A stretch of 64,000 bases of DNA from Hydrolagus colliei (lineage: Eukaryota), in contig CM068748.1 of assembly GCA_035084275.1 (NCBI GenBank), forward strand, positions 7,874,001 to 7,938,000, in the 5' to 3' direction. Below, one piece after another: positions 9,956 through 62,844 of this stretch; the first letter of the stretch is position 1, and every line of letters starts with the position of its first letter. The translations under genes were made by a program, and so were the position numbers. The notes beneath the pieces were generated by a model. The model worked only from the letters and a program-made list of their open reading frames with translations. It ran no database searches and was not told the origin of the DNA.

Positions 9956-10230
9956 GCTAAGCAGTAGGCTGTTAAGAAGCAAAAACTACTATAACTTAAC
10001 AGTAACCAAGGACATAGTTATTAATAAGCAAAACACAGCCATCCCGCATCAACATTTACAGGTCAAGTGCTGAAAATTTTGCAGTTTTGTCATTATACTT
10101 CAGACATTACTCGCTATTCACAAGCAGCAACAGGGACATCATCTTTTGGAACATCTGCTATTTCGTCAAAGAGAGAATGTGTTCCTTATGCTTCACAAAT
10201 AATCAAAACAAAGCAATGGAGTACACATTC

Positions 10231-10376
10231 CTTCATCAGAACCCACTTGAGTTCTGACAAAGGGTCGTGTACCCGAAATGTTGACTCACTTTTCCTTTCT
10301 CTACAGATGCTGCCTGACCTGCTGAGTGATTTCTGTTGTTTCAGATTTTCAGCATCTGCAGTATTTTGCATTTTTG
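10231..10376 (+). mobile_element. Short Penelope/retrozyme-like repeat with a decayed minimal hammerhead motif
   Basis: TGAGTT-CTGACAA-AGGGTCGTGTACCC-GAAA-TGTT-GACTCA, then the GATGCTGCCTGACCTGCTGAGT tail. Confidence 0.7.
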
Positions 10377-10750: not shown

Positions 10751-11040
10751 GGTGTAGAGTCCTGTAGCTCAATGGTTAGAGCACTCTCCTTACAAGCGAG
10801 TGAAATGGGTTCAATTCCAGGGGCAAGTTTCCTTACTTCACATGCCTGATAATTATCCCTAAAAAAAAATGGTCATTTCAATCCATGACTGTTTGTGGAA
10901 TACTGCTGTGCTCAATTGGCTGCAACATTTCACTCATATATACAGTTAATTCACTTTACAGTATATTCTGTGAAGCGCTTTGATATATATAGAAGACGCT
11001 AAAAGCGCTATATCAAACGCAAGGATTGTTAATTACTATT
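10751..11040 (+). mobile_element. tRNA-derived SINE
   Basis: TAGCTCAATGG / GGTTCAATTCC boxes, shared body and tail. Confidence 0.85.
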
Positions 11041-11674: not shown

Positions 11675-11805
11675 ACAGAAGTTGCTGGGGAAACTCAGGT
11701 CAGGCAGCATCCATGGAGAAAGGAAAAAGAGTCAACGTTTCGGGTCTACAACCCCTCGTTCTAATGAAGTTTCAGATTCCCAGCATCTTTAGTATTTTGT
11801 GTTTT
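11675..11805. mobile_element. Same hammerhead-bearing repeat, inverted and internally deleted copy
   Basis: Minus strand GGGTTGTAGACCCGAAACGTTGACTC plus tail; plus-strand tail at 11770-11805. Confidence 0.65.
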
Positions 11806-19600: not shown

Positions 19601-20066
19601 CCAAAATCCTCCTAGCCATTAACAGACTGATCTGTTTTTTTTTGTGGGGGGGGCAGGGCATAAACCCTTTGTACAGATAAGTTAGCACCTAATGTTGGCA
19701 ACATAACACAAAAGGAAAAATTTTCCTACATACACACCAGATCTGTCTCCACTTTTTATAAAACTGGAATTAAATGGGAAAGTGCCTCCTTTTTCCTGAT
19801 TGCGCTTTTATATGTCATTTGACACAAAAAAATGTATATACATAACATATCTACGCAATCTTTTCCATTGGACAACAGTGTCAAAACCTCGTGGATGTAT
19901 GTATGGGGCTAAACAACATTGGTCAGGAAAAGATCATTGTTCCTATAGTCGGTGTAGCATTTTACTTGACACATTGTCCTATTGCCATTAAAAAAGGTAC
20001 TTGCTTTCAGTTTCTTCAAGTTTGTTTCCTTTTTCTCTCATAGTTTTAATTTCCCATAAAAATATT
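16655..20066 (-). other. PTEN: PTEN 3'UTR (about 3.4 kb)
   Basis: Many blocks resemble the human PTEN 3'UTR (e.g. TTCCAGTTTTATAAAAAGTGGAGACAGA); ends ...CTGATTAAAGTCTCATTCTTGTCA like the human 3.3-kb isoform. Confidence 0.85.
16670..16675 (-). terminator. PTEN poly(A) signal ATTAAA
   Basis: ATTAAA about 15 nt before a CA cleavage candidate, in a context matching the human site. Confidence 0.75.
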
Positions 20067-43044: not shown

Positions 43045-43540
43045 GGTTTAGATAGCCGTAAGTAGGAACCCAGTTGTTAGTGGATTTGTGGATCGCTTTT
43101 CTAGTGTTAATAATCCCTTAAAAAAATTATTTAAGAAAAATATGGTCACTCAATTCATGACTGTTTGTGGGAGACTGCTGTGTACAATTAGCTGCCGAGT
43201 TTAGCCCACAAAGTATACAGTCAATTCACTTCACAATATCAAAAACACAAAATACTGCAGATGCTGTAAATCTGAAACAAAAACAGAAGTCCCTGGGAAC
43301 ACTCAGCAGGTCAGGCAGCATCTATGCAGAAAGGAAAAGTAAGTAAACGTTTCGGATCCATGACCCTTCGTCAGAACACAAACAGTTTTGACGAAGGGTC
43401 ATGGATCCGAAATGTTGACTTACTTTTCCTTTCTCCATAGATGCTGCCTGACCTGCTGAGTGTTCCCAGGGACTTCTGTTTTTGTTTCACTTTACAATAT
43501 ATTCTGTGAAGCGCTTTGAGATGTCTCCAAGACATGATAA
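43045..43540 (+). mobile_element. SINE variant interrupted by the palindromic insertion
   Basis: Body stops at 43239 and resumes at about 43490 with ATTCTGTGAAGCGCTTTGAGATG. Confidence 0.75.
43240..43489. mobile_element. Palindromic hammerhead-bearing repeat inserted in a SINE
   Basis: Arms 43273-43377 and 43385-43489; flanking near-duplication TTCACTTYACAATAT. Confidence 0.8.
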
Positions 43541-46232: not shown

Positions 46233-46530
46233 GTGGAGTCCCGTAGCTCAGTGGTTAGAGCATTTGCCTCGCAAATGATCTGGGTTTGATTTCCAGCAGG
46301 GCAAAACCTTGCACAAATTTTCTTAAATTGCCTGATAATAATCCCTCAAAAAATACCAACAATAAATTGATCACTTTAATTTGCGACTGTTTGTGGAACA
46401 CTACAGTGCGGAATTGGCTGCCATGCTTCTCCCACAAATATACAGTCATTTCACTTTTCACTGAAGCTCTTTGAGATGCCGAGAAGACGTGTAAAGCACT
46501 ATATTATATGCAAGAATTATTATTATTATT
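46233..46530 (+). mobile_element. tRNA-derived SINE, near full length
   Basis: A box TAGCTCAGTGG, B-box-like GGTTTGATTTCC, body TTTGTGG...AATTGGCTGCC, (ATT)n tail. Confidence 0.85.
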
Positions 46531-52157: not shown

Positions 52158-52478
<321 letters not shown>

Positions 52479-53540: not shown

Positions 53541-54275
53541 CCAGCTCAGCCCAGACTCAAAATCCTAACCCTAACCTCATCCCAGAGCCCAGCTCACCTC
53601 CATCCCAGAGCCCGGCTCACTGCAGCCCAAAACCAGGCTCACCTCCAGCCCAGGCTCAAACCCAGCTCACCACAACCCGCCTCACCTCATCCCAGAGCCC
53701 GGCTCACCACCATCCCAGAGCCCGGCTCACCACCATCCCAGAGCCCGGTTCAAACTCGAACCTCATCTGGGCTCACCTCATATAAGAGCCTGGCTCAAAC
53801 TCGGCTCACCTCCTCCCAGAGGCTAGCTCATCCTATCTCGGCTCACCTCATCCCAGAGTCCAGCTCACCTCAGCACAGAGTCCGGCTCACCTCAGCTCTG
53901 AGGCAGACTGAAACCCTGTTCATCTCAGCCCTGTGCCCGGCTCAAACCCCATTCATCTCAGCCGAGGCAGGCTCCAACCCTACTAACCTCAGCCCCGAAC
54001 GAGGCTCAAACCTGACTCACTTCAGCCTTTAGCCAAGTTCAGATGCGAGCCCACCTTGCCAGAGCCCAGCTCAGCCCAGACTCACCTCAGCCTAGAACCC
54101 AGCTCCGTCCAGAGGCAGGCTCAAACGCTTCCCACCTTAGCAAATGAGCCAGGCTCAAACCAGATTCGTCTCAGGCCAGAGTCCAGCTCAGACCCGGCTA
54201 ACCTCAGCCCATACTCATCTCAACTCAGGCTCACCTCAGACCTCAGCTCAATCCCCAGCTCATCCCAACCCAAAC
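53540..54275. repeat. Degenerate minisatellite, about 22-23 bp unit CCCAGAGCCCGGCTCACC(T/AC)CAT
   Basis: Exact 23-mer repeated at 53691-53713 and 53714-53736; degenerate copies across about 730 bp. Confidence 0.85.
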
Positions 54276-57421: not shown

Positions 57422-57726
57422 AATCCCTGCATTTGATATAGCACTTTTCACGTCTTTTAGACATCTCAAAGCGCTTCAAAGAATATACTGTAAGGTGAAT
57501 TAACTGTATATACGTGGGCAAAATGTGGCAGCCAATTGCGCACAGCAGTTGTGTCCCACAAACAGTCGTGGATTTAAATGACCAATTTATTATTGGTTTT
57601 TTTGTCGGATTATTATCAGGCGAGTGGAGTAAGGAAACTTGCCCAAGGTTACACCCTGCCTGGAATTGAACCCAGGTCTCTCGTTTGTAAGGAAAGTACT
57701 TTAATCACTGAGCTACAGGACTCCAC
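57422..57726 (-). mobile_element. tRNA-derived SINE, near full length
   Basis: Minus strand GTGGAGTCCTGTAGCTCAGTGA...GGTTCAATTCC. Confidence 0.85.
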
Positions 57727-62282: not shown

Positions 62283-62385
62283 GTCAGAATTGTTTTGATG
62301 AAGGGTTGTGAACCCAAAATGTTAACTCACTTTCCTTTCTCCATACATACTGCCTGAGTGTTCCCAGAGACTTCTGTTTTGATTT
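62283..62385 (+). mobile_element. Decayed copy of the hammerhead-bearing repeat
   Basis: GTTTTGATGAAGGGTTGTGAACCCAAAATGTTAACTCACTTTCCTTTCTCCAT... Confidence 0.6.
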
Positions 62386-62844
62386 AAGACCTATGTAATG
62401 GCTACCATCCCTTTTGAAACAGAGTTGTTCAAATTGAATGTTATGTAACTTTAGCAGCAATATTTTAAAATATGGAAAGGATAGCAAAACCTTTCTAATC
62501 CATAGTATTGCATCAAGTGAATTTTATAGTTATTGTTCAAAAATATGTTTGACTAATTGTTACTTCTCTTGAGGTAAAGTTCCGCATTTGCTTTTTGTTA
62601 AAATGTTCTTTCTATGGCATATTTAATGTATAGTTATCTTATCTACAAAGGTATTTGTACATCTTGATCGGTAATACAACAACTACATTAAATAAATTTA
62701 TTTTCCACAAAACTGCAAATCAGCTAACAGTTGTTAATACTGAATAGTATCAGAGTGCTAGAAATTAGATTAAGATTAAGGCATAGCTATGGGAATGCTC
62801 CTGCTTTGTGATCTATTTGAGATGAATTATTAATTGACTTGCAG

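Follow-up and report, generated by a model that had tools for sequence, protein, structure and literature searches.

The repeated hammerhead-like segments of the analysed window, a stretch of 64,000 nucleotides from the Hydrolagus colliei genome (contig CM068748.1, positions 7,874,001 to 7,938,000), are very probably 5'-truncated and partly inverted pLTR insertions of an EN+ Penelope-like element, likely Neptune, and the hammerhead in these decayed copies is predicted to be inactive. In our numbering, C3 of the hammerhead core is 0 and the predicted cut lies between +28 and +29; loci in the window are named by their approximate position. An earlier note had claimed five related segments, and BLAST together with a profile built from five arms has found exactly five in the window. 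Over the aligned bases their identity to the family majority is 86-98%, with profile E-values of 4e-27 to 5e-37 that rest on a profile built from the same five arms. The features identified are as follows:

10230..10242, minus strand: 13-nt inverted piece of the motif 5' end (-3 to +9), read from the sequence
10250..10376, plus strand: pLTR arm of the older subfamily A, -4 to +134, tailed, with a 12-nt internal deletion
10250..10286, plus strand: decayed minimal type-I hammerhead motif, as defined in PMC4209133
11675..11759, minus strand: pLTR arm of the younger subfamily B, +3 to +90, untailed, core start missing
11758..11803, plus strand: opposite arm, about -3 to +7 fused directly to the tail (+95 to +129)
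43225..43239, plus strand: target-site duplication of 15 bp with one mismatch, left copy
43240..43377, minus strand: tailed arm, -3 to +134, core intact
43383..43489, plus strand: untailed arm, -5 to +101, with C3>T and C15.2>T
43486..43500, plus strand: target-site duplication, right copy
62292..62389, plus strand: untailed arm, the most decayed of the window, -3 to +103

Every arm was found to carry at least one motif lesion, and many of these are CpG transitions, as had been claimed; the motif in these decayed copies is predicted to be inactive. The 10k motif has G8>A at 10259, G>T in outer stem II at 10270 and C15.2>T at 10279, with its predicted cut between 10282 and 10283. In the 43240..43377 arm the closing pair of helix I is broken by G1.1>T at 43345, and the 62k arm has seven motif changes, C3>T and G12>A included. 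The 11.7k segment, which had been counted as a copy of the motif, lacks the first core bases, since its minus arm starts at +3. The claim of a partial inversion at all four loci is clearly upheld at 43k and 11.7k, where the inverted arms are evident, and at 10k by a short piece connected to the arm through a 7-nt linker; at 62k the inversion is only 7-8 nt, which taken alone is at chance level. The 43k locus is composed of two 105-nt arms forming a 96% complementary palindrome, and its left duplication copy (43225..43239) sits within another dispersed repeat. No target-site duplication was found at the 10k insertion.

On its minus strand the window contains PTEN (E 2e-38 for an exon match), with the first exon near 52310 and the stop codon near 20060. 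The 43k insertion is intronic because PTEN spans 20060-52310 (minus), and its stop codon is followed by the 10k and 11.7k copies at a distance of 8-10 kb. The exon preceding the 62k copy (61982 onward, plus strand), divergent from PTEN, presumably belongs to ATAD1. Further, tRNA-like heads of a dispersed SINE-type repeat were observed at 10758-10826, 46237-46304 and 57651-57722; this repeat recurs about ten times in the window, and the 43k insertion lies inside one copy. A G+C-rich tandem repeat with 22-33-nt units (53559-54255) adjoins the PTEN first exon region.

Minimal hammerhead ribozymes (min-HHRs) occur in the pLTRs of metazoan Penelope-like elements (Cervera and De la Pena 2014, PMC4209133), and the mapping onto a hammerhead has held, as the majorities of both subfamilies agree with the minimal type-I consensus published there. 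Both majorities read AGUU CUGACGA A GGGUY GUR GACCC GAAA CG UU GACU, with the CUGANGAH and GAAAN boxes, the extra base after A9, the G10.1-C11.1 pair, a GUU site, a 4-bp helix I (AGUU/GACU) and a 5-bp helix II; the palindromic CG at 15.2/16.2 is present in 39 of 53 arms. The GAGUU formerly proposed as the 5' strand of helix I is peculiar to the 10k junction, both majorities having CCCC-AGUU at this place. By our criteria, the motif is intact in 20 of the 53 arms spanning it. The family shares with the published min-HHRs the CUGANGA core, the extra base before G10.1, the G10.1-C11.1 pair, GAAA, the palindromic CG, the NUH site and the short helix I, and a GUU site occurs in several of the published motifs. 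It also shares their occurrence as mostly single motifs from truncated elements and as opposite-strand pairs, and differs in having a helix II of 5 bp with a 3-nt loop (PMC4209133). Cartilaginous fish are absent from the examined part of the alignment in that paper.

The resemblance to a hammerhead may be incidental or vestigial, the motif never cleaving even in the source element, and we consider this unlikely after weighing the following results. Stem II had been described as staying paired while its sequence varies; this does not amount to covariation, as the score of 0.170 compares with 0.138 in shuffles and 123 of 500 shuffles scored as high, so that the five window arms are only at shuffle level. 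Across 53 arms, one two-sided change was seen among the pairs of stem II and helix I, and a by-eye count of stem II variants found 3 compensated among 100 listed of 177. A vestigial motif would fit this absence of two-sided covariation, and it would equally fit the Rfam scan of the window with its damaged arms, whose 12 matches at E<=10 did not include a hammerhead family. Predicted monomer folds retain stem II and pair the core UGAC with the GUU site, giving a modelled hammerhead probability below 0.01; these folds would suit a ribozyme that depends on a dimer or a protein, and equally the absence of a ribozyme. The motif is only slightly better kept between the subfamilies (37/39 identical) than the rest of the pLTR (83/98), and 8 of 9 Xenopus dimers did not cleave (bioRxiv 10.64898/2026.07.22.740005). 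Against a vestigial origin, all published consensus features are present together, and within a pLTR, where such motifs are known. Moreover, the motif descriptor is specific to this family, with 74 matches in 1.5 Mb of family-enriched loci and 0 in the reversed sequence. Two lineage-level, one-sided stem changes also preserve pairing: C-G to U-G in stem II and, in a sub-lineage of subfamily B (10 of 53 arms; among L215-L304), the closing U-G of helix I to C-G.

Selection on the inserted copies was considered and rejected. In 34 copies (from 38 picked by UTR or ORF regardless of the motif, 4 not spanning the region), non-CpG core changes numbered 8/299 against 97/2330 in the flanks (p 0.27), and stem changes, 46/529, were above the flank rate. 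The 53-arm set gave 14/476 core changes against 125/1634 in the flanks (p 1e-4), but inclusion in this set required the core to align, which is a caveat on its better-kept core. We read this as neutral decay of the inserted copies.

The link to Penelope is confirmed by longer copies, which continue into an ORF with GIY-YIG and RT. Upstream of the pLTR lies a pyrimidine-rich UTR of about 280 nt and, farther upstream, the ORF, and in 30 loci picked by the 3' UTR the coverage declines gradually upstream, as graded 5' truncation. Among another 30 loci, picked by the ORF start, the terminal piece joins the ORF start directly in 21. Since this piece both follows the 3' UTR and precedes the ORF start, it is a pLTR. 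The order of the unit is pLTR, ORF, 3' UTR, pLTR, over about 3.2 kb, with an ORF of about 920 codons (by the coordinates of L167 and L156) and about 135 nt of pLTR from the core to the ORF start. Translations of natural copies show DKG, the RT core, YIDD, a C-x4-C-x2-C linker and a GIY-YIG region, together with YIGET, cysteine and histidine motifs, in the order RT, cysteine linker and C-terminal GIY-YIG. Pfam matches to RVT_1 (E 1e-4) and GIY-YIG (E 4e-4), both under the curated cut-offs, came from longer or EN-complete fragments; a Pfam scan of seven short fragments gave no RT or GIY-YIG match. The Atlas gave GIY-YIG clusters at 0.96, and a PDB sequence search with a 517-aa RT fragment returned nothing relevant. 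There was no intact ORF among 150 scored of 903 candidates, in which the longest open frames are 517 and 513 aa, and autonomy is thus judged from decayed copies. L299, taken at one stage for a full-length element, consists of two separate insertions, and a divergent-looking family at C30 (L169) showed a frameshifted RT fragment, as other loci do.

A CX2-5CxxC linker ahead of the GIY-YIG and CCHH motif, a feature of the Neptune clade, is present in the translations. Such a linker belongs to Neptune/Nematis (PMC8557442); the linker here points to Neptune or Nematis, and Neptune is the likely clade on this one sequence motif. The partial tandem pLTR-ORF arrangement, the inverted truncated pLTR at the 5' end with a short target-site duplication, and the optional 30-40-nt tail on one end are as in other EN+ Penelope-like elements (PMC3846280, PMC8557442), for which the inverted pLTR, tail and duplication are typical (PMC3846280). 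Unlike those elements, most insertions here are pLTR-only stubs, and the duplication length peaks at 13-14 bp whereas it is 8-10 bp in the rotifer examples (PMC3846280, PMC8557442).

The family is abundant. Exact genomic matches to a 28-nt tag from downstream of the motif number 5,536, the perfect 35-nt motif has 719 copies, and each reversed control gave 0. Forty evenly chosen 10-kb stretches, 34 of them on four large contigs, contained 5 loci, from which about 12,000 loci can be extrapolated for the genome (1.0 Gb, 532 contigs), with a Poisson range of roughly 4,000-29,000. The copies fall in two subfamilies with a within-group likeness of about 78% (A) and 90% (B). Six motif matches about 18.9 kb apart at G000:C3:71,071,417-71,164,338 suggest a tandem segmental array. 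A GUC site recurring in 12-kb arrays looked like a third family and was found to be one decayed copy within the histone gene repeat. This copy, of the 3' end of the element, lies about 360 nt upstream of a histone H3 start codon and has a stem II mismatch besides the GUC site; it has multiplied together with the 12-13-kb histone gene repeat, with more than 30 matches listed:

G000:C45 (about 114-996 kb), C304, C40 and C1:155.35-155.43 Mb: histone-linked copies, loci L354-L356 and L365-L368

The ends of the insertions were surveyed in the first 100 of the 5,536 tag matches, all in the first 9.8 Mb of contig C1. At the 5' side, 14 arms extend more than 20 nt upstream, 10 end at -15..-7 and 38 at -6..+1, a hot spot at helix I; the other 38 are spread over +2..+45. 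The ribozyme cut was rejected as the 5' end of the copies, only 2 of the 100 arms starting at +29/+30. At the 3' side, 49 arms end at +89..+103, 3 lie between and 48 reach +121 or beyond, the outer peak being limited by references that ended at +129 (B) and +134 (A); the insertions hence have two alternative end points, separated by about 33 nt. A second set, of 118 arms and in part the same as the first, includes 34 that run on into the UTR and 84 that stop; among these 84, 70 break off 3-6 nt before C3. The pLTRs joined to an ORF start at -7..-2 in 6 of 21 cases. Loose ends at -5..-3 and +124..+133 recur in runs X1-X4, among contigs and reads alike. RNA reads of another organism (X3 and X4, one sample) map to both strands, and 73% continue into unlike sequence; their starts and ends do not pile up, which is compatible with cleavage all the same. 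Such a pattern is what passive read-through would give.

An inverted piece was present upstream in 60 of the 100 arms. Seven arms were dropped (piece ending before +85, or more than 70 nt off) and one double-counted locus was merged, giving a set of 40 two-armed loci. One arm is tailed in 37 of these, none in 3 and both in 0; by our own arithmetic, such a one-tail rule has a probability of about 1e-8 under independence. Where present, the tail of about 33 nt is on exactly one arm. A duplication of at least 9 nt, with up to one mismatch permitted, was found in 37 of the 40 loci as against 25 of 300 mismatched flank pairs, and 19 of the 37 fall at the length mode of 13-14 bp.

For the formation of these insertions, we propose that the RT-endonuclease would make a staggered cut in the target and that both strands of the cut would prime reverse transcription, with two internal start sites. 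Such twin priming has been shown in vitro for green anole Poseidon PAc (Frangieh et al. 2024, PMC11167929), whose protein cuts and extends both strands and whose two internal RT start sites bound the tail. Both cDNAs would stop at or before the RNA 5' end, likely at helix I (near -4), and would be joined head to head to give the 100-140-nt arms. The ribozyme would act, if at all, only in the RNA of the source element, as a dimer or protein-assisted, and its cut would not set the ends of the inserted copies. In PAc, too, insertion does not require the protein-assisted ribozyme, and the ribozyme's cut does not coincide with an RNA end; there, the ribozyme extends over the start of the ORF, within which RT begins, whereas the motif here precedes the ORF by about 135 nt and both ends are in the 5' UTR. 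In contrast to the one-tail rule of the present family, start-site use by PAc in vitro had no strand difference (PMC11167929). An alternative that has been put forward is self-priming on an antisense template (PMC3846280).

The RNA 5' end may lie at helix I, a placement drawn from the clustering of copy ends. The CCAGTTC near -4 fits YYANWYY, which we take to be the initiator consensus, and if RNA starts at this CCAGTTC, the ribozyme would therefore be the first 37 nt of the transcript. It can be suggested tentatively, at somewhat less than even chances, that RNA starts at the initiator-like CCAGTTC, that each strand has its own start site, one tailed and one untailed, and that thousands of stubs record it. 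A splice acceptor at the same CAG is an alternative to an RNA start for the hot spot. A spliced template of the D. virilis kind, whose intron would end at the CAG that precedes helix I, was rejected, 0 of 84 short arms being joined to upstream UTR in a search that covered only about 290 nt of UTR. At the proposed RNA start there was no excess of a cap-derived extra G (G 8, A 8, T 3).

The earlier note had favoured a non-autonomous, retrozyme-like family. One form of such a reading is a short element, SINE-like, whose pLTR units are self-promoted and re-copied in trans by the Penelope protein. The predominance of short units, 84 of 118 arms stopping near helix I, could be explained by a separate short RNA; the internal promoter of the Drosophila Penelope pLTR (PMC2377424) would fit transcribed short units, and pLTRs act in trans (PMC3846280). 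At two loci separated by 194 kb, L279 and L283 (G000:C1:7.63 and 7.83 Mb), an entire two-armed unit with a complex junction of 23 nt is common to both (86% identity), although the flanks are unrelated. This sharing reflects either re-copying of the whole palindrome or gene conversion, and it leaves room for occasional re-copying of short units. As a general account, however, the short element is quite improbable: the short units pass without a break into the 3' UTR and ORF of the coding element, junctions are unique in 38 of the 40 two-armed loci, the ORF-bearing copies have the same 5' hot spot, and the short arms fall in the same two subfamily majorities as those copies.

The other form, a non-LTR retrozyme in which tandem ribozyme repeats would self-cleave as dimers, circularise and spread as monomers, is in our judgement exceedingly improbable. 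The copies do share with retrozymes the type-I hammerhead, the pLTR ancestry and the short non-coding unit (PMC7229834); the palindromic minimal helix III suits dimers, one X1 contig has a head-to-tail join of a 137-nt unit, and retrozymes, which derive from pLTRs, are reported in one chondrichthyan (bioRxiv 10.64898/2026.07.22.740005). Retrozymes, however, are head-to-tail arrays (PMC7229834, bioRxiv 10.64898/2026.07.22.740005), whereas the copies here are solo or head to head. Neighbours within 700 nt at 160 loci are head to head in 62 cases, a count that includes overlapping loci more than once, and on the same strand in 4; no adjacent pair of whole units in a head-to-tail tandem array was found among these loci. 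The rarity of arms starting at the cut also argues against a retrozyme. Truncated, partly inverted pLTR insertions of a coding Penelope-like element remain the preferred explanation.

The presence of minimal hammerheads in fish Neptune and Poseidon pLTRs is already published. A published description of this family was not found in titles, the beginnings of abstracts or PMC6155905, a search that had closed journals and repeat databases outside its scope. For annotation, our study adds a high-copy family from a cartilaginous-fish genome to the known range of the Penelope minimal hammerhead. For specialists, the family provides a large natural data set on Penelope insertion, in which the ends shun the ribozyme cut and cluster at helix I and each insertion has one tail. 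This end pattern bears on the purpose of the ribozyme and on the origin of the inverted ends and, if the one-tail rule holds in vivo, it would be a rule unseen in the in vitro anole system as described in PMC11167929.
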